Assembly (NCBI GenBank): GCA_964016885.1
Contig: OZ024744.1
Coordinates: forward strand, 135,532,001 to 135,596,000
Direction of reading: 5' to 3'
From: Eledone cirrhosa
Lineage: Eukaryota
Length of the DNA: 64,000 nt
Notes under the pieces: generated by a model
What the model was told of the DNA's origin: nothing
Seen by the model: only the letters and a program-made list of their open reading frames with translations
Database searches by the model: none
Shown: in pieces, positions 1 through 33,035 of the stretch
Layout: each line of letters begins with the position of its first letter
How positions within the stretch are numbered: position 1 is the stretch's first letter
Position numbers and translations under genes: made by a program

Positions 1-3000
1 TGTACACACTGTAAAGTGGTCATGTAGGTAACATGACATAAAGTACCCAGTACACACTGTAAAGTGGTCATGTAGGTGTCATGACAAAAAATACCCAGTA
101 AACACTGTAAAGTGGTCATGTAGGTGTCATGACAAAAAGTACCCAGTAAACACTGGAAAGTGGTCATGTAGGTGTCACATCAAAAAGTACCCAGTACACA
201 CTGTAAAGTGGTCATGTAGGTGTCACAACAAAATGTACCCAGTCCACACTATAAAGTGGTCATGTAGGTGTCACAACAAAAAATACCCAGTACACACTGT
301 AAAGTGGTCATGTAGGTGTCATTACAAAAAGTACCCAGTACACACTGTAAAGTAGTCATGTAGGTGTCACAACAAAAAGCACCGAGTATACACTGTAAAG
401 TGGTCATGTAGGTGTCACAACAAAAAGTACCCAATACATACTGTAAAGTGGTCATGTAGGTTTCACAACAAAAATTACCCAGTCCACACTGTAAAGTAGT
501 CATGTAGGTGTCACAACAAAAAGTACACAGTACATACTGTAAAGTGGTCATGAAGGTGTCATGACAAAAAGTATCCATTCCACACTATAAAGTGGTCATG
601 TAGGTTTTACAATAAAAAGAACCCAGTTCATACTGTAAAGTAGTCATGTAGGTGGCACAACAACAAGCACCCAGTACACACTGTAAAGTAGTCATGTAGG
701 TGGCACAACAATTCCCAGTAGATACTGTAAAGTGGTCATGAAGGTGTCATGACAAAAAGTACCCAGTCTACGCTGTGTGGTCATGTAGGTGTCATGACAA
801 AAAGTACCCAGTCCACACTGCAAAGTAGTCATGTAGGTGTCACAAGACAAAGTACCCAGTCCACACTGTAAAGTAGTCATGTAGGTGTCACAAGACAAAG
901 TACCCAGTCCACACTGTAAAGGAGTCATGTAGGTATCATGACAAAAAATACCCAGTAAAGACGGGAAAGTTGTCTTGTAGGTGTCACAACAAAAAGCACC
1001 CAGTACATACTGTAAAGTGGTTATGAAGGTGTCATGACAAAATGTACCCAGTACACACTGTAAAGTGGTCATGTAGGTGTCTCAACAAAAATAACTCAGT
1101 ACATACTGTAAAGTGGTTATGAAGGTGTCATGACAAAAAGTACCCATTTTACACTGTAAAGTGGTCATGTAGGTTTTACAACAAAAAGTACCCAGTCCAC
1201 ACTGTAAAGTAGACATGCAGGTGTCACAACAAAAAGTACTCAGTCCACACTGTAAAGTAGACATGTAGGTGTCACCGCAAAAAGTACTTAGTACACACTG
1301 TAAAGTGGTCATGTAGGTGTCACAACAAAACGTACCCAGTACAAACTGTAAAGTGGTCATGTAGGTGTCACAACAAAAAGTACCCAGTACACATTGTAAA
1401 TTGGTCATGTAGGTGTCACAACAAAATGTACCCAGTACACACTGTAAATTAGTCATGTAGGTGTCACAACAAAAAGTACCCTGTACACACTGTAAAGTGG
1501 TCATGTAGGTAACATGACAAAAAGTACCCAGTACACACTGTAAAGGGGTCATGTAGGTGTCATGACAAAAAATACCCAGTAAACACTGTAAAGTGGTCAT
1601 GTAGGTGTCATGACAAAAAGTACCCAGTAAACACTGGAAAGTGGTCATGTAGGTGTCACATCAAAAAGTACCCAGTACACACTGTAAAGTGGTCATGTAG
1701 GTGTCACAACAAAATGTACCCAGTCCACACTATAAAGTGGTCATGTAGGTGTCACAACAAAAAATACCCAGTACACACTGTAAAGTGGTCATGTAGGTGT
1801 CATTACAAAAAGTACCCAGTACACACTGTAAAGTAGTCATGTAGGTGTCACAACAAAAAGCACCGAGTATACACTGTAAAGTGGTCATGTAGGTGTCACA
1901 ACAAAAAGTACCCAGTACATACTGTAAAGTGGTCATGTAGGTGTCACAACAAAAATTACCCAGTCCACACTGTAAAGTAGTCATGTAGGTGTCACAACAA
2001 AAAGTACACAGTACATACTGTAAAGTGGTCATGAAGGTGTCATGACAAAAAGTACCCAGTACACACTGTAAAGTGGTCATGTAGGTGTCACAACAAAAAT
2101 TACTCAGTACATACTGTAAAGTGGTTATGAAGGTGTCATGATAAAAAGTACCTATTCCACACTGTAAAGTAGTCATGTAGGTGGCACAACAACAAACACC
2201 CAGTACACACTGTAAAGTGGTCATGTAGGTGTCACAAGACAAAGTACCCAGTCCACACTGTAAAGTGGTCATGTAGGTGTCACGGCAAAAAGTACCCAGT
2301 ACACACTGTAAAGTGGTCATGTAGGTGTCACAACAAAAAGAACCCAGTACACACTGTAATGTAGTCATGTAGGTGTCACAACAAACAGTACCCAGTACAC
2401 ACTGTAAAGTGGTCATGTAGATGTCACAACAAAGAGTACCCAGTACACACTGTAAAGTGGTCATGTAGGTGTCACAACAAAAAGTACCCATTCCACACTG
2501 TAAAGTGGTCATGTAGGTGTCACGGCAAAAAGTACCCAGTACACACTGTAAAGTGGTCATGTAGATGTCACAACAAAAAGTACCCAGTACACACTGTAAA
2601 GTGGTCATTTAGATGTCACAACAAAGAGTACCCAGTACACACTGTAAAGTGGTCATGTAGATGTCACAACAAAGAGTACCCAGTTCACACTGTAAAGTGG
2701 TCATGTAGGCGTCACATCAAAAAGTACCCAGTACAGAATGTAAAGTGGTCATGTAGGTGTCATGACAACAAATACCCAGTAAACACTGGAAAGTGGTCAT
2801 GTAGGTGTCACAACAAAAAGTACCCATTCCACACTGTAAAGTGGTCATGTAGTTGTCACAACAAAAGTACCCATTCCACACTGTAAAGTGGTCATGTAGG
2901 TGTCACAACAAAAAGTACCCGTTCCACACTGTAAAGTGGTCATGTAGTTGGCACAACAATAAGCACCCAGTACACACTGTAAAGAGGTCATGTAGGTTTC

Positions 3001-6000
3001 ATGACAAATAGTACCCAGTACATACTGAAAGTAGTCATGTAGGTGGCAAAACAAGTACCCAGTACATACTGTAAAGTGATCATGTAGGTGTCATGACAAA
3101 AAGTACCCAGTCCACACTGCAAAGCAGTCTTGTAGGTGTCACAAGACAAAGTACCCAGTCCACACTGTAAAGTGGTCATGTAGGTGTCAACAAAAAGTAC
3201 CCAGTACACACTGTAAAGTGGTCATGATGGTGTCACAACAAAAAGTACGCAGTCCACACTGTAAAGTGGTCATGTAGGTGTCACAACAAAAAGTACCCAG
3301 TACATACTGCAAAGTGGGCATGTAGGTGTCACAACAAAATGTACCCAGTCCACACTGTAAAGTAGTCATGTAGGTGTCACAAGACAAAGTACCCAGTCCA
3401 CACTGTAAAGTAGTCATGTAGGTGTCACAAGACAAAGTACCCAGTCCACACTGTAAAGTAGTCATGTAGGTATCATGACAAAAAATACCCAGTAAAGACG
3501 GGAAAGTCGTCTTGTAGGTGTCACAACAAAAAGCACCCAGTACATACTGTAAAGTGGTTATGAAGGTGTCATGACAAAATGTACCCAGTACACACTGTAA
3601 AGTGGTCATATAGGTGTCTCAACAAAAATAACTCAGTACATACTGTAAAGTGGTTATGAAGGTGTCATGACAAAAAGTACCCATTTTACACTGTAAAATG
3701 GTCATGTAGGTTTTACAACAAAAAGTACCCAGTCCACACTGTAAAGTAGACATGCAGGTGTCACAACAAAAGGTACTCAGTCCACACTGTAAAGTAGACA
3801 TGTAGGTGTCACCGCAAAAAGTACTCAGTACACACTGTAAAGTAGTCATGTAGGTGTCACAACAAAAAGTACCCAGTACAAACTGTAAAGTGGTCATGTA
3901 GGTGTCACAACAAAAAGTACCCAGTACACATTGTAAATTGGTCATGTAGGTGTCACAACAAAAAGTACCCAGTACACACTGTAAAGTAGTCATGTAGGTG
4001 TCACAACAAAAAGTACCCTGTACACACTGTAAAGTGGTCATGTAGGTAACATGACAAAAAGTACCCAGTACACACTGTAAAGGGGTCATGTAGGTGTCAT
4101 GACAAAAAATACCCAGTAAACACTGTAAAGTGGTCATGTAGGTGTCATGACAAAAAGTACCCAGTAAACACTGGAAAGTGGTCATGTAGGTGTCACATCA
4201 AAAAGTACCCAGTACACACTGTAAAGTGGTCATGTAGGTGTCACAACAAAATGTACCCAGTCCACACTATTAAGTGGTCATGTAGGTGTCACAACAAAAA
4301 ATACCCAGTACACACTGTAAAGTGGTCATGTAGGTGTCATTACAAAAAGTACCCAGTACACACTGTAAAGTAGTCATGTAGGTGTCACAACAAAAAGCAC
4401 CGAGTATACACTGTAAAGTGGTCATGTAGGTGTCACAACAAAAAGTACCCAGTACATACTGTAAAGTGGTCATGTAGGTTTCACAACAAAAATTACCCAG
4501 TCCACACTGTAAAGTAGTCATGTAGGTCTCACAACAAAAAGTACACAGTACATACTGTAAAGTGGTCATGAAGGTGTCATGACAAAAAGTATCCATTCCA
4601 CACTATAAAGTGGTCATGTAGGTTTTACAATAAAAAGAACCCAGTTCATACTGTAAAGTAGTCATGTAGGTGGCACAACAACAAGCACCCAGTACACACT
4701 GTAAAGTAGTCATGTAGGTGGCACAACAATTCCCAGTAGATACTGTAAAGTGGTCATGAAGGTGTCATGACAAAAAGTACCCAGTCTACGCTGTGTGGTC
4801 ATGTAGGTGTCATGACAAAAAGTACCCAGTCCACACTGCAAAGTAGTCATGTAGGTGTCACAAGACAAAGTACCCAGTCCACACTGTAAAGTAGTCATGT
4901 AGGTGTCACAAGACAAAGTACCCAGTCCACACTGTAAAGGAGTCATGTAGGTATCATGACAAAAAATACCCAGTAAAGACGGGAAAGTTGTCTTGTAGGT
5001 GTCACAACAAAAAGCACCCATTACATACTGTAAAGTGGTTATGAAGGTGTCATGACAAAATGTACCCAGTACACACTGTAAAGTGGTCATGTAGGTGTCT
5101 CAACAAAAATAACTCAGTACATACTGTAAAGTGGTTATGAAGGTGTCATGACAAAAAGTACCCATTTTACACTGTAAAGTGGTCATGTAGGTTTTACAAC
5201 AAAAAGTACCCAGTCCACACTGTAAAGTAGACATGCAGGTGTCACAACAAAAAGTACTCAGTCCACACTGTAAAGTAGACATGTAGGTGTCACCGCAAAA
5301 AGTACTTAGTACACACTGTAAAGTGGTCATGTAGGTGTCACAACAAAACGTACCCAGTACAAACTGTAAAGTGGTCATGTAGGTGTCACAACAAAAAGTA
5401 CCCAGTACACATTGTAAATTGGTCATGTAGGTGTCACAACAAAAAGTACCCAGTACACACTGTAAATTAGTCATGTAGGTGTCACAACAAAAAGTACCCT
5501 GTACACACTGTAAAGTGGTCATGTAGGTAACATGACAAAAAGTACCCAGTACACACTGTAAAGGGGTCATGTAGGTGTCATGACAAAAAATACCCAGTAA
5601 ACACTGTAAAGTGGTCATGTAGGTGTCATGACAAAAAGTACCCAGTAAACACTGGAAAGTGGTCATGTAGGTGTCACATCAAAAAGTACCCAGTACACAC
5701 TGTAAAGTGGTCATGTAGGTGTCACAACAAAATGTACCCAGTCCACACTATAAAGTGGTCATGTAGGTGTCACAACAAAAAATACCCAGTACACACTGTA
5801 AAGTGGTCATGTAGGTGTCATTACAAAAAGTACCCAGTACACACTGTAAAGTAGTCATGTAGGTGTCACAACAAAAAGCACCGAGTATACACTGTAAAGT
5901 GGTCATGTAGGTGTCACAACAAAAAGTACCCAGTACATACTGTAAAGTGGTCATGTAGGTGTCACAACAAAAATTACCCAGTCCACACTGTAAAGTAGTC

Positions 6001-9000
6001 ATGTAGGTGTCACAACAAAAAGTACACAGTACATACTGTAAAGTGGTCATGAAGGTGTCATGACAAAAAGTACCCAGTACACACTGTAAAGTGGTCATGT
6101 AGGTGTCACAACAAAAATTACTCAGTACATACTGTAAAGTGGTTATGAAGGTGTCATGATAAAAAGTACCTATTCCACACTGTAAAGTAGTCATGTAGGT
6201 GGCACAACAACAAACACCCAGTACACACTGTAAAGTGGTCATGTAGGTGTCACAAGACAAAGTACCCAGTCCACACTGTAAAGTGGTCATGTAGGTGTCA
6301 CGGCAAAAAGTACCCAGTACACACTGTAAAGTGGTTATGTAGGTGTCACAACAAAAAGAACCCAGTACACACTGTAATGTAGTCATGTAGGTGTCACAAC
6401 AAACAGTACCCAGTACACACTGTAAAGTGGTCATGTAGATGTCACAACAAAGAGTACCCAGTACACACTGTAAAGTGGTCATGTAGGTGTCACAACAAAA
6501 AGTACCCATTCCACACTGTAAAGTGGTCATGTAGGTGTCACGGCAAAAAGTACCCAGTACACACTGTAAAGTGGTCATGTAGATGTCACAACAAAAAGTA
6601 CCCAGTACACACTGTAAAGTGGTCATTTAGATGTCACAACAAAGAGTACCCAGTACACACTGTAAAGTGGTCATGTAGATGTCACAACAAAAAGTACCCT
6701 GTTCACACTGTAAAGCGGTCATGTAGGCGTCACATCAAAAAGTACCCAGTACAGAATGTAAAGTGGTCATGTAGGTGTCATGACAACAAATACCCAGTAA
6801 ACACTGGAAAGTGGTCATGTAGGTGTCACAACAAAAAGTACCCATTCCACACTGTAAAGTGGTCATGTAGTTGTCACAACAAAAAGTACCCATTCCACAC
6901 TGTAAAGTGGTCATGTAGGTGTCACAACAAAAAGTACCCGTTCCACACTGTAAAGTGGTCATGTAGTTGGCACAACAATAAGCACCCAGTACACACTGTA
7001 AAGAGGTCATGTAGGTTTCATGACAAATAGTACCCAGTACATACTGAAAGTAGTCATGTAGGTGGCAAAACAAGTACCCAGTACATACTGTAAAGTGATC
7101 ATGTCGGTGTCATGACAAAAAGTACCCAGTCCACACTGCAAAGCAGTCTTGTAGGTGTCACAAGACAAAGTACCCAGTCCACACTGTAAAGTGGTCATGT
7201 AGGTGTCAACAAAAAGTACCCAGTACACACTGTAAAGTGGTCATGATGGTGTCACAACAAAAAGTACGCAGTCCACACTGTAAAGTGGTCATGAAGGTCT
7301 CATGACAAAAAGTACCCAGTACACACTGTAAAGTAGTCATGTAGGTGTCACAACAAAAATTACTCAGTACATACTGTAAAGTGGTTATGAAGGTTTCATG
7401 AGAAAAAGTAGCCATTCCACACTGTAAAATGGTCATGTAGGTGTCACAACAAAAATTACCCAGTCCACACTGTAAAGTGGTCATGTAGGTGTCACAACAA
7501 AAATTACCCAGTCCACACTGTAAAGTAGTCATGTAGGTGTAACAACAAAAATTACTCAGTACATACTGTAAAGTGGTTATGAAGGTGTCATGAGAAAAAG
7601 TACCCATTCCACACTGTAAAGTGGTCATGTAGGTGTCATGACAAATAGTACCCAGTACACACTGTAAAGTAGACGTGTAGGTGGCAAAAGTACCCAGTAC
7701 ATACTGTAACGTGGTCATGTAGGTATTATGACAAAAAGTACCCAGTCTACACTGTGTGGTCATGTAGGTGTCACAACATAATGTACCCAGTACACACTGT
7801 AAAGTGGTCATGTATGTGTCACGACAAATAGTACCCAGTATACACTGTAAAGTAGTCATGTAGGTGGCACAACAAGTACCCAGTACATACTGTAAAGTGG
7901 TTATGAAGGTGTCATGACAAAAAGTACCCAGTACACACTGTAAAGTAGTCATGTAGGTGTCTCAACAAAAATAACTCAGTACATACTGTAAAGTGGTTAT
8001 GAAGGTGTCATGACAAAAAGTACCCATTTTACACTGTAAAGTGGTCATGTAGGTTTTACAACAAAAAGTACTCAGTCCACACTGTAAAATAGACATGCAG
8101 GTGTCACAACAAAAAGTACTCAGTCCACACTGTAAAGTAGACATGTAGGTGTCACCGCAAAAAGTACCCAGTACACACCGTAAAGTAGTCATGTAGGTGT
8201 CACAACAAAAAGTACCCAGTACACACTGTAAAGTGGTCATGTAGGTGTCACAACAAAAAGTACCCAGTACACATTGTAAAGTGGTCATGTATGTGTCATG
8301 ACAAAAAATACCCAGTAAAGACGGGAAAGTTGTCTTGTAGGTGTCACAACAAAAAGCACCCAGTACATACTGTAAAGTGGTTATGAAGGTGTCATGACAA
8401 AAAGTACCCAGTACACACTGCAAAGTGGTCATGTAGGTGTCTCAACAAAAATAACTCAGTACATACTGTAAAGTGGTTATGAAGGTGTCACAACAAAAAG
8501 TACCCAGTACACACTGTAAAGTAGTCATGTAGGTGTCACAACAAAAAGTACCCTGTACACACTGTAAAGTGGTCATGTATGTAACATGACAAAAAGTACC
8601 CAGTACACGCTGTAAAGTGGTCATGTAGGTGTCATGACAAAAAATACCCAGTAAACACTGTAAACTGGTCATGTAGGTGTCATGACAAAAAGTACCCAGT
8701 AAACACTGGAAAGTGGTCATGTAGGTGTCACATCAAAAAGTACCCAGTACACACTGTAAAGTATTCATGTAGGTGTCACAATAAAAAGTACCCAGTACAC
8801 ACTGTAAAGTAGTCATGTAGGTGTCATGACAAAAAGTACCCAGTAAACACTGGAAAGTGGTCATGTAGGTGTCACAACAAAAAGTACCCATTCCACACTA
8901 TAAAGTGGTCATGGAGGTGTCACAACAAAAAGTACCCAGTACATACTGTAAAGTGGTCATGTAGGTGTCATGACAAAAAATACCCTGTAAACACTGTAAA

Positions 9001-12000
9001 GTGGTCATGTAGGTGTCACAACAAAAATTACCCAGTACACACCGTAATGTAGTCATGTAGGTGTCACAATAAAAAGTACCCAGTACACATTGTAAATTGG
9101 TCATGTAGGTGTCACAACAAAAAGTACCTAGTACACACTGTAAAGTAGTCATGTAGGTGTCACAATAAAAAGTACCCAGTACACACTGTAAAGTGGTCAT
9201 GTAGGTGTCATGACAAAAAGTACCCAGTAAATACTGTAAAGTGGTCATGTAGGTGTCACAACAAAAATTACTCAGTACATACTGTAAAGTGGTTATGAAG
9301 GTGTCATGATAAAAAGTACCTATTCCACACTGTAAAGTAGTCATGTAGGTGGCACAACAACAAACACCCAGTACACACTGTAAAGTGGTCATGTAGGTGT
9401 CACAAGACAAAGTACCCAGTCCACACTGTAAAGTGGTCATGTAGGTGTCACGGCAAAAAGTACCCAGTACACACTGTAAAGTGGTCATGTAGGTGTCACA
9501 ACAAAAAGAACCCAGTACACACTGTAATGTAGTCATGTAGGTGTCACAACAAACAGTACCCAGTACACACTGTAAAGTGGTCATGTAGATGTCACAACAA
9601 AGAGTACCCAGTACACACTGTAAAGTGGTCATGTAGGTGTCACAACAAAAAGTACCCATTCCACACTGTAAAGTGGTCATGTAGGTGTCACGGCAAAAAG
9701 TACCCAGTACACACTGTAAAGTGGTCATGTAGATGTCACAACAAAAAGTACCCAGTACACACTGTAAAGTGGTCATTTAGATGTCACAACAAAGAGTACC
9801 CAGTACACACTGTAAAGTGGTCATGTAGATGTCACAACAAAAAGTACCCTGTTCACACTGTAAAGCGGTCATGTAGGCGTCACATCAAAAAGTACCCAGT
9901 ACAGAATGTAAAGTGGTCATGTAGGTGTCATGACAACAAATACCCAGTAAACACTGGAAAGTGGTCATGTAGGTGTCACAACAAAAAGTACCCATTCCAC
10001 ACTGTAAAGTGGTCATGTAGTTGTCACAACAAAAAGTACCCATTCCACACTGTAAAGTGGTCATGTAGGTGTCACAACAAAAAGTACCCGTTCCACACTG
10101 TAAAGTGGTCATGTAGTTGGCACAACAATAAGCACCCAGTACACACTGTAAAGAGGTCATGTAGGTTTCATGACAAATAGTACCCAGTACATACTGAAAG
10201 TAGTCATGTAGGTGGCAAAACAAGTACCCAGTACATACTGTAAAGTGATCATGTCGGTGTCATGACAAAAAGTACCCAGTCCACACTGCAAAGCAGTCTT
10301 GTAGGTGTCACAAGACAAAGTACCCAGTCCACACTGTAAAGTGGTCATGTAGGTGTCAACAAAAAGTACCCAGTACACACTGTAAAGTGGTCATGATGGT
10401 GTCACAACAAAAAGTACGCAGTCCACACTGTAAAGTGGTCATGAAGGTCTCATGACAAAAAGTACCCAGTACACACTGTAAAGTAGTCATGTAGGTGTCA
10501 CAACAAAAATTACTCAGTACATACTGTAAAGTGGTTATGAAGGTTTCATGAGAAAAAGTAGCCATTCCACACTGTAAAATGGTCATGTAGGTGTCACAAC
10601 AAAAATTACCCAGTCCACACTGTAAAGTGGTCATGTAGGTGTCACAACAAAAATTACCCAGTCCACACTGTAAAGTAGTCATGTAGGTGTAACAACAAAA
10701 ATTACTCAGTACATACTGTAAAGTGGTTATGAAGGTGTCATGAGAAAAAGTACCCATTCCACACTGTAAAGTGGTCATGTAGGTGTCATGACAAATAGTA
10801 CCCAGTACACACTGTAAAGTAGACGTGTAGGTGGCAAAAGTACCCAGTACATACTGTAACGTGGTCATGTAGGTATTATGACAAAAAGTACCCAGTCTAC
10901 ACTGTGTGGTCATGTAGGTGTCACAACATAATGTACCCAGTACACACTGTAAAGTGGTCATGTATGTGTCACGACAAATAGTACCCAGTATACACTGTAA
11001 AGTAGTCATGTAGGTGGCACAACAAGTACCCAGTACATACTGTAAAGTGGTTATGAAGGTGTCATGACAAAAAGTACCCAGTACACACTGTAAAGTAGTC
11101 ATGTAGGTGTCTCAACAAAAATAACTCAGTACATACTGTAAAGTGGTTATGAAGGTGTCATGACAAAAAGTACCCATTTTACACTGTAAAGTGGTCATGT
11201 AGGTTTTACAACAAAAAGTACTCAGTCCACACTGTAAAATAGACATGCAGGTGTCACAACAAAAAGTACTCAGTCCACACTGTAAAGTAGACATGTAGGT
11301 GTCACCGCAAAAAGTACCCAGTACACACCGTAAAGTAGTCATGTAGGTGTCACAACAAAAAGTACCCAGTACACACTGTAAAGTGGTCATGTAGGTGTCA
11401 CAACAAAAAGTACCCAGTACACATTGTAAAGTGGTCATGTATGTGTCATGACAAAAAATACCCAGTAAAGACGGGAAAGTTGTCTTGTAGGTGTCACAAC
11501 AAAAAGCACCCAGTACATACTGTAAAGTGGTTATGAAGGTGTCATGACAAAAAGTACCCAGTACACACTGCAAAGTGGTCATGTAGGTGTCTCAACAAAA
11601 ATAACTCAGTACATACTGTAAAGTGGTTATGAAGGTGTCACAACAAAAAGTACCCAGTACACACTGTAAAGTAGTCATGTAGGTGTCACAACAAAAAGTA
11701 CCCTGTACACACTGTAAAGTGGTCATGTATGTAACATGACAAAAAGTACCCAGTACACGCTGTAAAGTGGTCATGTAGGTGTCATGACAAAAAATACCCA
11801 GTAAACACTGTAAACTGGTCATGTAGGTGTCATGACAAAAAGTACCCAGTAAACACTGGAAAGTGGTCATGTAGGTGTCACATCAAAAAGTACCCAGTAC
11901 ACACTGTAAAGTATTCATGTAGGTGTCACAATAAAAAGTACCCAGTACACACTGTAAAGTAGTCATGTAGGTGTCATGACAAAAAGTACCCAGTAAACAC

Positions 12001-13350
12001 TGGAAAGTGGTCATGTAGGTGTCACAACAAAAAGTACCCATTCCACACTATAAAGTGGTCATGGAGGTGTCACAACAAAAAGTACCCAGTACATACTGTA
12101 AAGTGGTCATGTAGGTGTCATGACAAAAAATACCCTGTAAACACTGTAAAGTGGTCATGTAGGTGTCACAACAAAAATTACCCAGTACACACCGTAATGT
12201 AGTCATGTAGGTGTCACAATAAAAAGTACCCAGTACACATTGTAAATTGGTCATGTAGGTGTCACAACAAAAAGTACCTAGTACACACTGTAAAGTAGTC
12301 ATGTAGGTGTCACAATAAAAAGTACCCAGTACACACTGTAAAGTGGTCATGTAGGTGTCATGACAAAAAGTACCCAGTAAATACTGGAAAGTGTTCATGT
12401 AGGTGTCACAACAAAAAGTACCCGTTCCACATAGTAAATTGGTCATGTAGGTGTCACAACAAAAAGTACCCAGTACACACTGTAAAGTGGTAACGTAGGT
12501 ATCATGACAAAAAGTACCTAGTACACACTGTAAAGTGGTCATGTAGATGTCACAACCAAAAGTACCCAGTACACACTGTAAAATGGTCATGTAGGTGTCA
12601 TGACAAAAAGTATCCAGTACACACTGTAAAGTGGTCATGTAGGTGTCACAACAAAAAGTACCCAGTACATACTGTAAAGTGGTCATGAAGACGTCATGAC
12701 AAAAAATACCCAGTAAACACTGGAAAGTGGTCATGTAGGTGTCACAACAGAAAGTACCCATTCCACACTGTAAAGTGGTCATGTAGATGTCCCAACAAAA
12801 AGTACCCAATACCCACTGTAAAGTAGTCATGTAGGTGGCCCAACAACAAGTACCCAGTACACACTGTAAAGTGGTCATGTATGTGTCACAACAAATAGTA
12901 CCCAGTATACACTGTAAAGTAGTCATGTAGGTGGCACAACAAGTACCCAGTACATACAGTAAAGTGGTCATGTAGGTGTTATGACAAAAAGTACCCAGTC
13001 TACACTGTGTGGTCATGTAGGTGTCATGACAAAAAGTACCCAGTCCACACTGGAAAATACTCATGTAGGTGTCACAACAATAAGTACCCAGTACACACTG
13101 TAAAGTGGTCATGTAGGTGTCACAACAATAAGTACCCAGTACACACTGTAAGGTAGTCATGTAGGTGTCACAACAAAAAGTACCCAGTCCACACTGCAAA
13201 GCAGTCATGTAGGTGTCACAACAAAAAGTACCCAGTCCACACTGCAAAGCAGTCATGTAGGTGGCACAACAAAATGTATCCAGTACACATAGTAAAGTGG
13301 TCATGTAGGTGTCACAAAAAAAAGTACCCAGTACACACTGTAAAGTGGTT
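1..13350. repeat. 48-bp tandem satellite (consensus CCCAGTACACACTGTAAAGTGGTCATGTAGGTGTCACAACAAAAAGTA), ~278 copies, with kb-scale higher-order duplications; runs off the left edge
   Basis: Monomer read directly from the sequence. Identical variant blocks recur at offsets 4018, 3150, 2537 and 1481 bp (matching ORF-track pairs). Confidence 0.99.
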
Positions 13351-13490
13351 AGTGTTAGGAAGGGCATCCAACTGTAGAAACCAAGCCAGAAACAGTGCTG
13401 TATGAGCAGAACATAGTCACCTGACCTGGCTTGTCTCACATGGGACAACTTGTCTAACCCATACTAACTTGGAAAATGGACATTAAATGG
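13325..13490 (+). mobile_element. 3' tail of RTE-LINE/SINE family, continuous with the last satellite monomer
   Basis: ...CACTGTAAAGTGGTTAGTGTTAGGAAGGGCATCCAACTGTAGAAACCAAGCCAG...TGTCTAACCCATACTAACTTGGAAAATGGACATTAAA matches the RTE 3'UTR at 32570-32745 and the reverse complement of 17690-17865. Confidence 0.9.
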
Positions 13491-16192: not shown

Positions 16193-17687
16193 ATGGCTGC
16201 TCCAAGTAAGAAGTGCCGACAGTATTCTGTTGAATATTTGTCTTACAGATTTATTCCATCACCACATAATAAAACGAAACCAATGTGCCTCATATGTACG
16301 GATGTACTTTCAAATGATAGCATGAAACCTTGTAAACTAAAAGTCCATCTAGAAACGAAGCACAAAGGAAAGGAAAATCAACCAGTAGAATACTTTAAAA
16401 AACAGTGTTTCAAGTGTTTTAAAAAAAAGTGAGTAAAATGAGTGATGGTTTACTAGCATCTTATGAAATTAGCAAGATAATAGCAAAGGCTGGAAAACCC
16501 CATAATATTGGTGAAACAGTAATTTTACCGGCTTTATCTGTTATAATTTCATCAGTTATGAAACAAAATCTAAGTGAAATTACTAATTCCATCCCTTTAA
16601 GCAACTCTTCTATGTCACGGTGCATTGATGAAATGGCAGAGAATGCAGAAAAACAATTAATAGCTAATTTGCAAGTAAAACAGTTTGCCCTTCAGCTTGA
16701 TGAATCTACCTTAACAGATAATAATGAAGCCATGCTATTAGCATATGTGAGATTTAAAGATGATAAAGGACCCAGAGAGGAAATGCTCTTTGCTAGAAGT
16801 CTTAGGACAGACACAAAAGGTGAAAGAATTGTTAATGAAGTTGTTACTTATTTCAAGGAAAACAATATTCCACTCAAAAATATAATTGCATGTGCTACTG
16901 ATGGTGCACCATCCATGACAGCCAGATACAAAGGTTTTATTACAAATTTGAAAAAAGCTGTTCCCGAAGTATTTTGTATTCACTGTGTGATACACCGTCA
17001 ACACTTGCAAAGAAATTGAGTGGACTTCTGGATGATGCCCTTGCTGTTGTGATAAAAGTGTTTAACCATATTAAATAAAATTCTCTCCGAGGCTGCCTTT
17101 TTCGTGAATTCTGTAATCAAAATGGAGAAGAGTTTGCGCGCCTTATATTACATACTGAGGTGAGGTGGCTTTCAAAGGGGAATTGTCTTCAACGTTTTAT
17201 TGCACTTTGGGATTCTATTGTCTCATTTCTTGCTAACACCCAGCCGGGAGAACAACTGCTTGCAACTAAATGTGATGTATTTTACTTAGCAGATATATTT
17301 GAAAAATTAAATTTACTTAATAAACAGCTCCAAAGAAAAGATTCTGATCTCATATCTAGTAAAGGTGTTATTACTGCTTTTCTGAGAAAACTACAGTTGT
17401 ACAAAAATAATATCAGGCGTCGTGCATTTGAACAGTTTCCTTTTTTTGCTTCGATTAGCAGCGATTTGCACAATGAAGACCTTCTATTATAAAGTGAATA
17501 TTTAGAAAATATGCACGAATATATGCAAACTCGCTTTAGTGACCTACTCATGATGGATATACCAACTTGGGTGACAATTCCTTTCGAAGTTAATGTTGCT
17601 GATATAGACATTTCTTTGCAGGAGCCCCTCATTGAATTACAAAGTGATGAAATAATGCGCGCAAAATACAAAGATGAGAAGTGTAAT
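16193..17687 (+). pseudogene. hAT (Buster/Charlie-type, ZBED8/SCAND3-like) transposase pseudogene, 3'-truncated
   Basis: BED finger CLIC...KLKVHLETKH; FALQLDEST; ACATDGAPSM; HCVIHRQHL; HTEVRWLSKG. Broken by frameshifts and stops into four ORF pieces, and cut by a retroposon tail at ~17688. Confidence 0.92.
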
Positions 17688-17925
17688 ATCATCATCATCA
17701 TCGTTTAACGTCTATCTTCCACGCTAGCATGGGTTAAACGGTAATTGTCCCACTTGAGGCAAGACTGGTCAGGTGACCAAGTCTCGCTCGTATAGGACTC
17801 TACCTGGCAGGTTTTCTACGGCTGGATGCCCTTCCTAACACCAACCACATTTACAGTGTGGACTGGGAGCTTCTTTACCGTGTTACCTACACGGCCACAT
17901 TATAGCGTGGACTGGGTGTTTTATT
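17688..17925 (-). mobile_element. RTE-tailed SINE or short LINE 3' end carrying ~1.5 copies of the 48-bp motif
   Basis: (ATC)n tail, GCTAGCATGGGTT, GGATGCCCTTCCTAACACCAACCAC, then TTTACAGTGTGGACTGGG...TTATAGCGTGGACTGGG about 48 bp apart. Confidence 0.85.
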
Positions 17926-17980: not shown

Positions 17981-20155
17981 CATCATCATCACCGTTTTAC
18001 ATCCGTTCTTCCATGCTAGCATGGGTTAGACGGGTTGTCCTGTTGTGGGCAGTGTCTGGTCGGCTGACCATGCCTTGCTCATGCAGGAACTGATTTGGCT
18101 TGATTTCTACAGCTGGATGCCCTTCCTAACACCAACCTCATTTACAGTATGGGCTGGGTGCTTTTTTGCCATGGCACCTCCACGACCACCTTGCAGTGGG
18201 AGGGTGTGGGGCATATTGTCTATATGCTTCAGCTTGTACCCATGGGAGGTCGGGTACTCTGTATTACTGCGTGACGCCAGAGGTCACGGTCGTGTGTCAT
18301 CGCCTTTGAGAGGTTAATTGGGTAAAGTCGGCTTTTATCACCTCATCCCAGGTCTTCTTGGGTCTCCCCACTCCGCGGTTTCCATTGACTTCTAGTGCTC
18401 TGCACCTTTTTATGCAGCTGTCATCCTTCATACGCATCACATGTCCATACCAACGCAACCGCCTCTCCTGCATGCAGCATTTGATTCCTCTTATGCTCAG
18501 TCTCTCTCTCAATTCATTTATGCTTTGTCGTTCGCGTATATTACTTTTACACATCCATCGGAGCATGCAGGCTTCGTTTCTTTCTAATTAACGTAAGTCT
18601 TCCACCTTCAGCGCCCAGGTCTCACTACCATGTAACATTGCTGTTCGGATACACGCATCATACAGTCTGCCTTTCATTCTGAGGGAGAAGCCTTTTGCAG
18701 CTAGCAGTGGCAGTAGTTCCCTGAACTTCTTCCATCCCGTTCTTACCCTAGTTATTGTACTTTCTGAACAGCCACCTCCGCTGCTAATTCGGTCACCTAG
18801 GTAGCAGAAGCTGTCTACTGTTTCTACAGAGCCCTCCCAGAGATTGGTGGTACTTGTTTCCTGTGGCTGTTTGCTGCTTGCTGTCTCAGCACAGCTGCTG
18901 CATGTGAAGCCTACATTCTTAATTAAGCTTCCTGAGATCCTGCTACATCTCTTGAGTACCCATTGTTTGCATTTGGGGCAGAGAATGGAGTTCCTACCTA
19001 CACCTTTCCTACATACTGAGCAAGGCCATTTCCCTGAGGGGATCTGGGCTCTGTTTTCTCGTCTACTTACAAGGACCTTAGTCTTTGAGACCCTTTCTTT
19101 CTAGTCTCTGCTTCCAAGTTTGGAATTTCTTCTCTAGTTCTACCATAGATTCAGCTATAAGTGCGAGGTCATCAGCATACAGGAATTCCCATGGGCATCC
19201 GGTCTTAAACTCCTCCGTTATTGCCTGCAGGACTATGATGAACAGGAGAGGGCTAAGAACAGAGCACTGGTGGACCCCAACCTGTACGCTAAATTCCTCG
19301 CTATACTCATTGCTAATCCTAACTTTGCTGACTGCTCCCCTATACATGGCTTGTACAGCTTTCACAAGCCATTCATCTACTCCTAGTTTTCTAAGAGCCC
19401 ACCAGATTACAGCACGTGGAACTCTGTCAAAGGCTTTCTCGAGATCGACGAATGCCAAGTAGAGTGGCTTACTTTTAGCTAGGTACTTTTCCTGTAACTG
19501 CCTCACAAGGAAGAGGGTATCAGTGGTGCCTCTTCCTGGTACAAACCCAAATTGCATCTCATCTAGTTTCACCCGGTCCCTAATCAACTATGCTATAACT
19601 CTTTCTGTTACTTTCATGACCTGGTCCATCAGCTTTATACCTCTATAGTTTCCTCTAACTAGTGCATCACCTTTACCTTTGTAGCAGTTGACAATGATGC
19701 TACTGCACCAATCTTTTGGTATGACACCTTCTAGTATTACCTGGTTAACAATACGTGTGGTTATAGTGTGACCTACAGACCCAGATGCCTTCAGCATCTC
19801 GGCAGCTATACCCGATGGACCGGTTGCCTTCCCCATCTTCATATCTTTGATTGCCTTACTTACTACGCTGCTGCTGACTTATACTGCTGGCCCCTCTATA
19901 GGATCTACTTGGGGTAGGGTCTCTTCTTCCCATGCATTCTCCTCATTTAGTAATCTATGATAATGGCTCTTTTATGCATCTTTCTTCTCAGCACTTGTGA
20001 GGGCAAGCTCACCTTTATCATTCCGGATACACTTCTCTCCAATGACATCACAATTCTCTCTGACACACTGCCTCGCAATCTTGAACACCTCCTGATTCTG
20101 GTCCTCACGTTGCAAAACATGCTTGAATTTTCTATCCTCTGCTTCCCTCCTAGCT
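17981..20155 (-). mobile_element. 5'-truncated RTE-clade LINE (RT domain, Cys-rich insert, 3'UTR, (GAT)n tail), inactivated
   Basis: NYRGIKLM, QFGFVPGRGTTD, FVDLEKAFDRVP, GVHQCSVLSPLLF, LYADDLAL, RRLRWYGHVMR, GRPKKTW; in-frame stops and frameshifts. Confidence 0.95.
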
Positions 20156-23279: not shown

Positions 23280-23799
23280 CTGGGAAAAAAAGAAAAAAAA
23301 AATATATATATATAAGAGAGTATTGAAGTTTGCTTGAAGCATTGTGGAATAATAAGATTTATTTTCTTTTGGTCGTTTTGGAAGCCTCAACAATGCAGAT
23401 GGGTAAGTCTCCGGGTAACAGGATCCGGTGGTGAAGAGAGAGATGTAAGGTAATGTAGAATGAGATGTATAGTGTGTAGAGGAACGTAGGAAAGAGCGTA
23501 AAAAATAAAAATAATAACACGAGATAGAGTTACCTTGGGAGAGATTTAATTGTCCCTATATTTCGGATTCGCATCCATCAACTGGGTTTTCCGGGGGAGA
23601 GGTGGGGAGTTATCTGTCGGAGAGGAACGGTATGTGTCCTCTGCTGTTCGCTGTTTGTGACTAACTGAGGTATTCTGCAGATAGCACGTGCGTGCGGAAT
23701 AGGTGCGGTCAAGCAAAGGTCGAAGCAGTTCTTTTAATTGTGGGAGTGGGATGGTGTTAGCTGTCAATCCATTGTAACTGCTAGTACCAAAAACCAGCA

Positions 23800-24345
23800 C
23801 AGATAAATAGTGTAGAGGGATACTACATCTAGGCTGAAGGTGTACCTATTGGATTTGAGGGTGTCAAGTTCTAGTTTGTTGAGTCGCTGGATGACATCAT
23901 CTGAGCTATAGATGTGGCCCGGGAAGGTTGTCAACAGGAGCTTTAAAATCTTGGACAGAAGCCAAAAGATTTTATAAGATGGTCCTTCAACACTGGAGAC
24001 AATGGGTCTAATTTTCAGGTCGGGTCCTTCTTCGTGGGTTTTGATCAGGTGGTAGAAGTTGGGCAGCTTGCTGTTTCTTGTTATGTAATTTTACTGGAAT
24101 CTCTTCGGGAGCCTTCGTTGATCACAGATGTTGGTCCAGGCAGTGTTGATCTGGTTCTCTATCAGTGTGGGTGTAATTCCAGTGACTTTTGAGTAGAGAC
24201 TGTCGTAGTTGAGATGTTGGTGGGTTCGGTTGTTGTAGGCCTCCCTATTAATAACACAAAACTCTTTTTCCTTGTCCAATGGGAGGTATACAAGGTCCTT
24301 AGATCTGAGGTTGCTTAGGGTAGCAAGTTGTGATCTGGAGGGATT
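23800..24345 (-). mobile_element. Penelope-like element RT fragment
   Basis: DKEKEFCVINREAY, LPNFYHLIKTH, KIRPIVSSVEGPSYKIFWLLSKILK, FSLDVVSLYT. Confidence 0.85.
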
Positions 24346-26926: not shown

Positions 26927-27788
26927 GATATTTGTTCGCAAGATTACGGTCTAGGAAAAAATAACACATTAGTTTTATTTTTTAAGATATATTTATCAAA
27001 CTTGGGTCAGTTTGTCTTCATGACTTGTTCTTTCAATCTCACTCGATAAACCTGCCATTGGCTTTGATGACGGCCTCAAGGCGGCCTTGGAACCGGCTAC
27101 AGGCCTTCGTCACTGTCCCCTGACTTAGGCCCCTAAAGGCATTTGTGATCCTGGCCTTCAGATCGTCTTTTGTATTGCAGCTAGATCTGTTGGTATCTCA
27201 TTCCACTGCGCCCCACACAAAGAAGTCGAGGGGGTTGCAGTCAGACTAGCTGGGAGGCCAGATATCAGGGGAAGTGTGGTCGACGAAGTTCTCTGACAGC
27301 CAGGCTTGGATCTTTCGGCTGGCATGGCAGGGCGCTGAGTCTTGGTGCCACACGTACGGCCTACCTGCAGCTACCTGGTCGATCCAGGGCTTTACTACCT
27401 CGCTCAGAACGCGGATGTAGCCATCGGTGTTCAGCTTGAGACCCTCAGGCATGAAGTCACCTTGACTGCTGACGACACCTAAGACCAATGTTCTTGCTGG
27501 AAACTTTGTTTGCATGACTCTGGGCACATCTTTGGATGAGACAGCGAGCCACCTGTTGTTCTGGGAGTTGATCTTCTGGTCTTATTTGTCCTCGCGGCGC
27601 GGATTCTAAGAACTCCGTGTCTCTTCCACAAATTTGGAGGTTCAAAATTATTCATAATCAATTATTCTGAAAAGAAATAATGGAAATATAGTCACTGTTT
27701 TTATGAAGACAAGAGTGACAACGGAAGTAAGAAAAATTTGCATAAAATTAGCAGTTGAAAATTGCGAACAAATATCATCCACACCCTG
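26927..27788 (-). mobile_element. Tc1/mariner superfamily, DD37D (maT)-type, deleted copy
   Basis: WHQDSAPCH...WPPS*SDCNPLDFFVWG with 37 residues between the two Asp. TIR core GATATTTGTTCGCAA is inverted at both ends (left end eroded); the right end CACCCTG is followed by TA. Confidence 0.88.
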
Positions 27789-27907: not shown

Positions 27908-28059
27908 ATATATATATATATTTATATATATATATGTACATAAATATATAGTGGCAAGAAACTCCCAGGAGAGCTGGGACAAAGGTCTTCAGAGAAGAGA
28001 CCACCACCCACCCAGATGAGTGTTTTGGCCCTTAACTTTTATATATATCTATATATACA

Positions 28060-28240
28060 CTTACATGACCACTTTAGAGTGTGTACTGGGTACTTTTTGT
28101 TGTGACACCTACATGACCACTTTACAGTGTGGACTGGGTACTTTTTGTTGTGACACCTACATGACCACTTTTTGTCTCACATGGGACAACTTGTCTAACT
28201 CATGCTAACATGGAAAATAGATGTTGACCAGTGATGATGG
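28060..28240. mobile_element. Orphan ~2.3 monomers of the 48-bp satellite (inverted) fused to a + strand RTE tail
   Basis: 28060-28171 is the reverse complement of the array consensus. It is followed by TTGTCTCACATGGGACAACTTGTCTAAC, identical to 13431-13458. Confidence 0.9.
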
Positions 28241-28396
28241 TGGTGGTGGTGGTGATGGTGGTGGTGGTGATGATGTGATGGTGTGATGGTGGTGATGATG
28301 GTGGTGATGGTGATGGTGGTGGTGGTGGTTATGGTTGTGGTGGTGATGGTGGTGGTAGTGGTGATGATGGTGATGGTGGTGGTGACGGTGGTGATG
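28232..28396. repeat. (TGG/TGA)n trinucleotide tract
   Basis: Read directly from the sequence. Confidence 0.9.
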
Positions 28397-31601: not shown

Positions 31602-32749
31602 AGAGAAGAAATTCCAAACATGGAAGCAGGGACTAGAAACAAAAGGTCTCAAAGTCAACCTGACAAAGACTAAGGTCCTTGTAAGTAGACGAGAAAACAG
31701 AACCCAGATCCCCTGAAGGAAATGGCCTTGCTCACTATGTAGGAAAGGTGTAGGTAGGAACTCCATTCTCTGCCCCAAATGCAAACAATGGGTTCACAAG
31801 AGATGTAGCGGGATCTCAGGAAGCTTAACTAAGAATGAAGGCTTCACATGTAGCAGCTGTGCTGGGACAGGAAGCAGCAAACAGCCACAGGAAACAATCA
31901 CCACTAAACTCTGGGAGGGCTCTGTAGAAACAGTAGACAGCTTCTGCTACCTAGGTGACCAAATTAGCAGCAGAGGTGGGTGTTCGGAAAGTACAATAAC
32001 TAGGGTAAGAACAGGATGCAAGAAGTTCAGGGAGCTACTGCTACTGCTAGCTGCAAAAGGCTTTTCCCTCAAAATGAAAGGCAGACTGTATGATGCGTGT
32101 ATACGAACAGCGATGTTACATGGTAGTGAGACCTGGGCACTGCCTGTGGAAGATTTGTGTAGATTGGATGTGTAATAGTAATATATGCGAACGGCAAAGC
32201 ATAAATGAATTGAGAGAGAGACTGAGCATAAGAGGAATCAAATGCTATGTCCAGGAGAGGCGGTGACGTTGGTATGGACATGTGATGCGTATGAAGGATG
32301 ACAGCTGCATAAAAAGGTGCAGAGCACTAGAAGTCAATGGAAACCGCGGAGTGGGGAGACCCACGAAGACCTGGGATGAGGTGATAAAAGCCGACTTTAC
32401 CCAATTACACCTCTCAAAAGCGATGACATACGACCGTGACTTCTGGCGTCATGCAGTAATACAGAAGACCCGGCCCCCAATAGGTACAAGCAGAATCTGA
32501 AGCATATAGACAATATGCCCCCACACCCTCCCACTGCAAAGAGGTCGTGGAGGTGCCACGGCAAAAAAGCACCCAGCACCCACTGTAAATGAGGTTGGTG
32601 TTAGGAAGGGCATCCAGCTGTAGAAATCAAGCCAGAATCAGTTCCCGTATGAGCAAGACAAGGTCAGCCGACCGGGCACTGCCCACTACAGGACAACCCG
32701 TCTAACCCATGCTAGCATGGAAGAACGGACGTAAAACCGTGATGATGAT
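31602..32749 (+). mobile_element. 5'-truncated RTE LINE, close relative of 17981-19135, inserted into a SINE
   Basis: Reverse-complement similarity along its length; (GAT)n tail; TSD GATGAGTGT at 31593-31601 and 32750-32758. Confidence 0.93.
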
Positions 32750-33035
32750 GATGAGTGTTCTAGTTGATCCGATTAACAGAACAGCCTGCTCATAAAATTA
32801 ACGTGCATGTGACTGAGCATTCCACAGATATGTGGGCACTTAACGTAGTTCTCAGGGAGATTCAACATCATACAGAATGTGACAATGCTAGCTCTTCGAA
32901 TTACATGTACAATTTATTTTTGCCAGGTGAGTGGACTGGAGCAACGTGAAATAAAATGTCTTGCTCAGGGACACAACACATCGCCAGGAATCGAACTGAC
33001 AACCTTACGATTGTAAACCCAATACCCTAACCACA
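32750..33035 (-). mobile_element. tRNA-derived SINE (remainder at ~31570-31601, split by the RTE)
   Basis: - strand head GTGGTTAGGGTATTGGG..GTTCGATTCC (B box); core CTGAGCAAGACATTTTATTTCACGTTGCTCCAGTCCACTCA. Confidence 0.8.

Follow-up and report, generated by a model that had tools for sequence, protein, structure and literature searches.

Satellites born from the 3' regions of retrotransposons are well documented in the part of PMC9659126 used here, which traces the pea satellite PisTR-A to 3'UTR tandem repeats of Ogre LTR elements, the common cetacean satellite to the L1 3' end, 18HT to HeT-A/TART and chicken HinfI to CR1. Regarding spread, the consulted sections of PMC7403614 describe young, near-identical repeats (Rsp-like and 1.688) that have spread into older homologous sites, with microhomology-mediated repair, interlocus gene conversion, eccDNA and MMBIR/FoSTeS-type switches as the proposed routes. 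How satellites reach new loci, as RNA, as circles or by gene conversion, is an open question.

The window, the 64,000-nucleotide stretch of Eledone cirrhosa DNA analysed here, contains the 3' part of a big array of 48-bp units (1..13349, plus strand; 77.3 kb and ~1,611 units for the whole array), which leads in register with its last unit into a LINE 3' tail (13342..13487, plus strand) that lacks the (GAT)n end. Its first unit lies within a (TA)n(CA)n microsatellite, ~64 kb before the left edge of the window, and neither a LINE body upstream nor a TSD was seen at this start. A preliminary description of the window had singled out a small piece, in which inverted array-type monomers are fused to a forward tail. 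It had been read as a sign of a separate, SVA-like non-autonomous element, mobilised as RNA, whose array-plus-tail transcripts seed new arrays.

Three LINE copies in the window each contain, within the 3'UTR, one unit homologous to the monomer (75-81% identity) and in register with the tail. The monomer is thus not foreign to the LINE, as had been supposed. Specifically, a 5'-truncated copy (31717..32750, plus strand) comprises the ORF end (PHD), the 3'UTR, one 48-bp unit (32538-32589), the tail and (GAT)n; a second copy (17981..19587, minus strand) has one unit (18141-18192) and the tail, together with remnants of RT and PHD coding sequence; and a short LINE 3' end of another subfamily (17690..17915, minus strand) consists of a unit and a tail. 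The window copies gave RVT_1 and PHD matches, and their relatives are ~1,050 aa long, with endonuclease, RT and PHD domains. The features looked for in a parent LINE were present, namely a long ORF with endonuclease and RT, and a microsatellite 3' end, (GAT)n. Following the preliminary description, we take this LINE to be putatively of the RTE type. Judging from sequence identity, the 48-bp satellite unit matches a repeated unit in the 3'UTR of the RTE-type LINEs of this genome, and the proposed SVA-like element would be replaced by the 3'UTR repeat of an autonomous LINE.

Elsewhere in the window, a 41-bp satellite (34444-64000) contains, on its minus strand, a 17-mer that matches the LINE tail at 15/17 positions, a value reached by 0/200 shuffled units; the end of this LINE may thus have given rise to a second satellite. 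Degraded frames at 16423-17492, 23764-24090 and 27246-27581 resemble fragments of transposase or RT from other elements, and no Pfam match was obtained for the frames at 16423-17019, 23764-24090 and 27246-27581.

LINE copies have 1-4 units, followed by a tail of ~145 nt and (GAT)n. A search with the ORF end and UTR returned 30 loci, 15 of which were copies of one multiplied insertion; 14 of the 16 independent insertions were readable, with ~2-4 position-specific units each (one was parsed as 1.4). The 15 near-identical copies include flank and lie on seven contigs (L218, L220-L223, L225, L228-L232, L234-L236 and L239), indicating that this LINE insertion lies in a larger multiplied unit. One tail motif alone had 1,854 matches genome-wide. 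Among 40 of its first 41 exact matches on contig C1, 4 reached the LINE UTR or ORF and 3 had at least 5 units, the largest having 8. Of 6,216 candidates, 40 were scored, and these included 38 non-self loci, on 13 contigs, with the combination of monomer, RTE-type tail and (GAT)n; to this extent the preliminary description was right in expecting a dispersed family. Since few tail matches reach the UTR or ORF or hold many units, such loci are mostly the normal 5'-truncated product of the autonomous LINE. TSD-like matches were found in 15/81 short stubs of units plus tail, against a shuffled mean of 8.3 and maximum of 12, a weak excess in agreement with this; short arrays do move as RNA, in the form of ordinary LINE 3'UTR.

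A SINE-like element combines a 48-bp unit with a shortened LINE tail in 35/368 elements parsed (a non-random sample). Most often there is a single unit, CpG-rich and of a type peculiar to this element, unlike the satellite type, and its head had no tRNA match in Rfam. In full-length SINEs, TSD-like matches were seen in 7/15 against a shuffled mean of 3.8, which is a weak test. One SINE-like copy (L298, 5353-6156) holds 12 of its own CpG-rich 48-bp units, as in-place growth inside a SINE, and at L305 (1-2500 and beyond) the unit of a 100-bp tandem repeat resembles the SINE-like core (72-85% over ~60 nt).

Arrays directly on LINE tails formed a size series from 7 to ~1,600 units at many scattered loci; those of 7-197 units ended in register on (GAT)n tails at many loci, and some others were tail-less. 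The LINE UTR was still upstream in three arrays, of 136 (L247), 18 (L255) and 17 units (L008). Both features tested for a satellite derived from a 3'UTR repeat, that is, an in-register homologous unit and homogenised arrays beyond transposable length, were present. Unit number changes in place, because L058 and L177, which are paralogous copies with the same flanks, carry 13 and 8 units, the big array of 77.3 kb measures 83.6 kb in its duplicate, and arrays hold private unit variants (L248, L126, L074, L271 and L292). The 32 arrays analysed deviated by 1.7-11.6% from their own majority, and distances between tails correlated with distances between array majorities over these arrays (Mantel r 0.38, p 0.009), favouring in-place growth for part of the 32. 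A comparison of a tail distance of 0.217 with an array-majority distance of 0.054 was set aside, as it compared single sequences with majorities. Many long arrays lie on contigs C25, C27 and C28, which may reflect regional spread, although the sample is biased. At L259 (4070-6851 and 7872-8304), one joint, between satellite units and an RT ORF end, is present two times, in one case following a LINE piece and in the other a SINE unit, and this repeated joint looks like local recombination at the 48-bp unit.

Among the 32 arrays of at least 7 units, the closest tails were 8.3% apart (median, 13.1%), with no near-identical pair. The big-array tail had no relative above 87% genome-wide among 40 candidates scored, and the tails of L008 and L059 had none above 91% among 40 candidates scored for each; likewise, no dispersed daughter of the big-array tail was found among the candidates scored genome-wide. 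Over these 32 arrays and the three tails searched, no dispersed family of the kind expected for an SVA-like arrangement, with a recent common tail and a defined 5' head was found, the 5' ends of arrays being truncations or LINE UTR. TSD tests, both of weak power, gave one 6-nt match, in simple sequence, for 11 truncated arrays of at least 11 units, and 4/30 for arrays of at least 4.5 units against a shuffled mean of 1.9 and maximum of 3. Given that daughters of a seeding RNA should share its tail, the lack of any two of these 32 arrays with a common tail leaves RNA seeding unsupported. The earlier proposal of RNA mobilisation holds for short arrays, as 3'UTR of an autonomous LINE, and is unsupported for the long ones.

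The units of several young arrays did not fit the old tails, of other subfamilies, on which they sit. Tails were grouped by one Ward clustering cut at five groups, and the satellite unit is the unit of tail cluster 4. In short elements of clusters 1 and 2, the units have 2-6 fixed non-CpG differences from the satellite unit, and tail-proximal units within 1 non-CpG substitution of it numbered 0/32 and 0/19, respectively. On tails of clusters 1 and 2, however, eight arrays (15-159 units) had a majority with 0 (seven arrays) or 1 (one array) non-CpG differences, and several of them keep a native-looking last unit. The arrays of L008 and L059 were 1.7% and 1.9% from their own majority, and their tails 14% and 10% from the majority of their cluster, so that array and tail differ in age. 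Because private changes would have become fixed in arrays grown from the resident unit, as at L248, L126, L074, L271 and L292, it is likely that resident LINE copies recently received satellite units through recombination at the homologous unit. Note that 20/32 arrays were picked up through similarity to the very unit that served as yardstick. Private variants are frequent in arrays that were found by other means, so import appears to be one route and not the only one. Part of the pattern could also come from selection acting on the unit sequence or from a cDNA donor. A T in the A-run of the unit was dropped as a satellite marker, as 18/139 short elements carry it.

Taken as a first pass, these comparisons favour DNA-level import into old LINE copies plus local growth. 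Here, 5' truncation of LINE copies leaves stubs of units and tail across the genome, and units would be imported at a resident 48-bp unit by homologous recombination, gene conversion or re-integration of a circle, the donor being a chromosome, a circle or cDNA. Under such import, old LINE copies would act as landing pads. A variant with an RNA donor, in which satellite transcripts are copied by LINE reverse transcriptase into breaks at resident 48-bp units, seems distinctly doubtful to us. The odds are equally long against its corollary that thousands of dead LINE copies form a landing-pad grid, that the satellite 'homes' into old copies of its parent and that the piece singled out earlier is an aborted event of this kind.

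That piece begins with inverted satellite-type units (28057..28171, minus strand; TRF: period 48, 2.4 copies, 95% matches) of the young 48-bp type, antiparallel to the big array, and the forward tail begins at 28172, as had been described. The tail consists of a 28-nt tract identical to part of the big-array tail (28172..28199, plus strand), with a rare 1-nt deletion within its first 12 nt, followed by an older LINE tail 3' end with a (GAT)n terminus (28200..28240, plus strand), which would be the resident copy that was patched. The piece terminates in GTGATGATG and continues into a (GGT/GAT)n run (28238..28393, plus strand), likely the expanded microsatellite end of the tail. It shows an inverted 5' segment and a forward 3' end bearing the terminal repeat of the element. 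On the left lies (TA)n (28040..28060), whose last 4 nt, 28057-28060, are compatible with flank and unit alike; on the right, the GGT run gives way to unrelated sequence. In agreement with the earlier reading, no TSD was visible in these low-complexity flanks. The whole spacer between the two satellites (~13000-35000 in the window) is duplicated, together with both flanking arrays, 11 Mb away on the same contig in inverted orientation (22 kb, 99% identity), in what is either a recent duplication or an uncollapsed haplotype. A second 100% match of the flagged piece sits in this duplicate and was therefore not counted as an independent copy. The flagged joint is supported solely by its occurrence in both segmental duplicates; three DNA contig sets from one sample, compared with 27940-28240, gave no piece across the joints. 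An unpatched ancestral version of the site was not found.

The tract at 28172-28199 had 0/28 differences from 13431-13458, as stated previously, and the 28-mer (one position degenerate) occurred 4 times in the 3.0-Gb assembly, in the flagged piece, the big-array tail and their two segmental duplicates; the match exceeds chance. Beyond it, the two tails differed at 11/35 positions (31%), the median for unrelated tails being 12; the contrast between 0/28 and 11/35 gave a Fisher p of 0.0007 with a breakpoint picked after seeing the data. The tract had also been called distinct from the LINE copies. This applies to its only diagnostic part, the 1-nt deletion in the first 12 nt, and not to nt 10-28, which are common in the family. 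In fact, nt 10-47 of the flagged tail were matched equally well or better by other tails, and the tail of L090 on another contig matched nt 13-47 exactly. The deletion form was present at 11 other places against 1,854 of the undeleted form (~0.6% of tails), a variant one substitution from it had 79 matches, and the diagnostic deletion of the big-array tail had one other exact match in the genome. The tie between the flagged tail and the neighbouring array hangs on this one 1-nt deletion.

The inverted units had their best match, with 2/115 mismatches, at three places inside the 77-kb array, all at least 28 kb upstream of its tail. They differed at 6-15/115 positions from the units adjoining that tail and at no fewer than 3/115 from tested arrays at other loci; arrays on other contigs match almost as well (3 vs 2 mismatches). 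The inverted units also look several times younger than the tail to which they are joined. The flagged piece is a mosaic, in which young units and a rare deletion common to the neighbour lie on an older, different tail.

We consider the probable origin of the flagged piece to be a one-off, local, DNA-level template-switch repair patch, for which the neighbouring array served as template and an older LINE tail as recipient (probability roughly 0.65). A break at the resident tail near 28200 would have been repaired on the homologous tail 15 kb away, with 12-28 nt copied from the big-array tail, after which synthesis would have jumped to the array as a new template, running in the opposite direction, copied 115 nt and finally been joined to (TA)n. 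The switch may have used two 5-nt microhomologies, an after-the-fact reading that is allowed by the occurrence of a 10-mer across the joint in 288 units of the big array; the final 12-mer of the joint was absent from that array. Local rearrangement at the DNA level, which the preliminary description had kept as a fallback, fits best, and by itself the piece is most likely a minor local rearrangement.

The same structure could be read as a twin-primed retrocopy, in which an array-plus-tail RNA, of the kind that would seed arrays, was reverse-transcribed by LINE machinery from two primers. On our reading of the model in the available text of PMC2912911, twin priming requires one RNA, an inversion that starts near the forward part and usually a TSD. 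The inverted 5' part, the forward 3' part, the (GAT)n end and the loss at the joint fit that text (PMC2912911), as does the 4-nt overlap at the left junction, and the weak TSD-like excess of short stubs agrees with the movement of short arrays as RNA. However, one RNA cannot yield a tail that has 0/28 and then 31% differences over 35 nt from its source; no tail above 90% to the small tail was found among 40 candidates scored of 1,218, and the best-matching units lie at least 28 kb upstream instead of adjoining the tail. Furthermore, no TSD is visible, and landing 15 kb from the source is improbable in a 3-Gb genome. When the genome was searched exactly for a tail motif preceded, at a distance of 5-110 nt, by a satellite-type motif in inverted orientation, it returned only the flagged locus and its duplicate, so that no second case with this motif pair is at hand. 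Of 228 truncated elements, 13 had inverted family sequence at the 5' end, mostly as head-to-head neighbours, and two or three of these could fit twin priming; head-to-head or fold-back tail pairs at 5' ends were also seen near 3850-4130 of L175 and at L200. With no daughters among the 32 long arrays, whose minimum tail distance is 8.3%, we hold twin priming at this locus to be quite unlikely, and its extension to RNAs that seed new arrays finds no footing.

Two further readings were weighed. An old 65-nt LINE stub may have come to lie beside a satellite fragment, through later insertion of the fragment or because a deletion left it there, with two separate origins of the 1-nt deletion. Such a juxtaposition draws on the frequency of head-to-head neighbours in this LINE family, on the good match of other tails to nt 10-47, and on the recurrence of the deletion at 11 other places, and the window itself holds several tails. 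It is unlikely nonetheless: the inversion joint is precisely where the common tract starts, and the units find their best template in the same neighbouring array, so chance would need two coincidences. Alternatively, the array end may have been duplicated locally long ago, with an inversion and a deletion, the tails having then diverged and the units having been refreshed later by conversion; such a history would account for the less common variant at nt 37 (17 vs 147 tails) in both the flagged and the big-array tails. It appears very improbable, as the differences are confined to the last 35 nt, where the small tail resembles other tail groups, and the units look younger than the tail by the margin given above. 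On present evidence, and as far as sequence comparison can tell, the repeat is not a retrotransposable satellite, and a patch copied from the neighbouring array remains the preferred reading of the flagged piece.

The LINE tail of each array records the age and subfamily of its site independently of the array, and import, in-place growth and retrotransposition make different countable predictions within one assembly. This satellite, which derives from a LINE, spans a full range of array sizes and shows signs of import into old copies of that LINE, is a good test system for the spread of satellites. The open literature yielded no account of this repeat or of a satellite recolonising copies of its parent LINE, with Repbase/Dfam, subscription papers and supplements outside the scope of the search.

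Among the described systems, the flagged piece shares an inverted 5' segment with twin-primed, 5'-inverted L1, and the VNTR upstream of a tail recalls SVA, the hominid VNTR composite (PMC2912911 and PMC3287187, in the parts available). Unlike SVA and 5'-inverted L1, as far as those texts describe them, the present repeat has no distinct non-autonomous head and no tail-sharing daughter families, and the flagged locus is without a visible TSD and has a mosaic tail. The SINE-like element, with its 48-bp unit and shortened LINE tail, resembles RTE-tailed SINEs, including the cephalopod Ceph-SINEs, as presented in the portions of PMC5786205 and PMC6007223 used here. As noted, however, its unit is usually single, CpG-rich and specific to it instead of satellite-like, and a tRNA origin of its head is putative. 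Compared with PisTR-A/Ogre and kin, as outlined in the part of PMC9659126 cited at the outset, the parent in the present case is a LINE of the RTE type that carries 1-4 position-specific units, many arrays remain in register on a LINE tail, that of 77 kb included, and steps from 1 to ~1,600 units coexist. As with Rsp-like and 1.688, in the sections of PMC7403614 referred to above, young repeats occupy older homologous sites; in our case, scattered copies of the parent LINE serve as landing pads, and their tails label the age and subfamily of the site independently. By analogy with these systems, our findings would combine two known processes, an origin like that of PisTR-A from Ogre and a spread like that of Rsp-like and 1.688.
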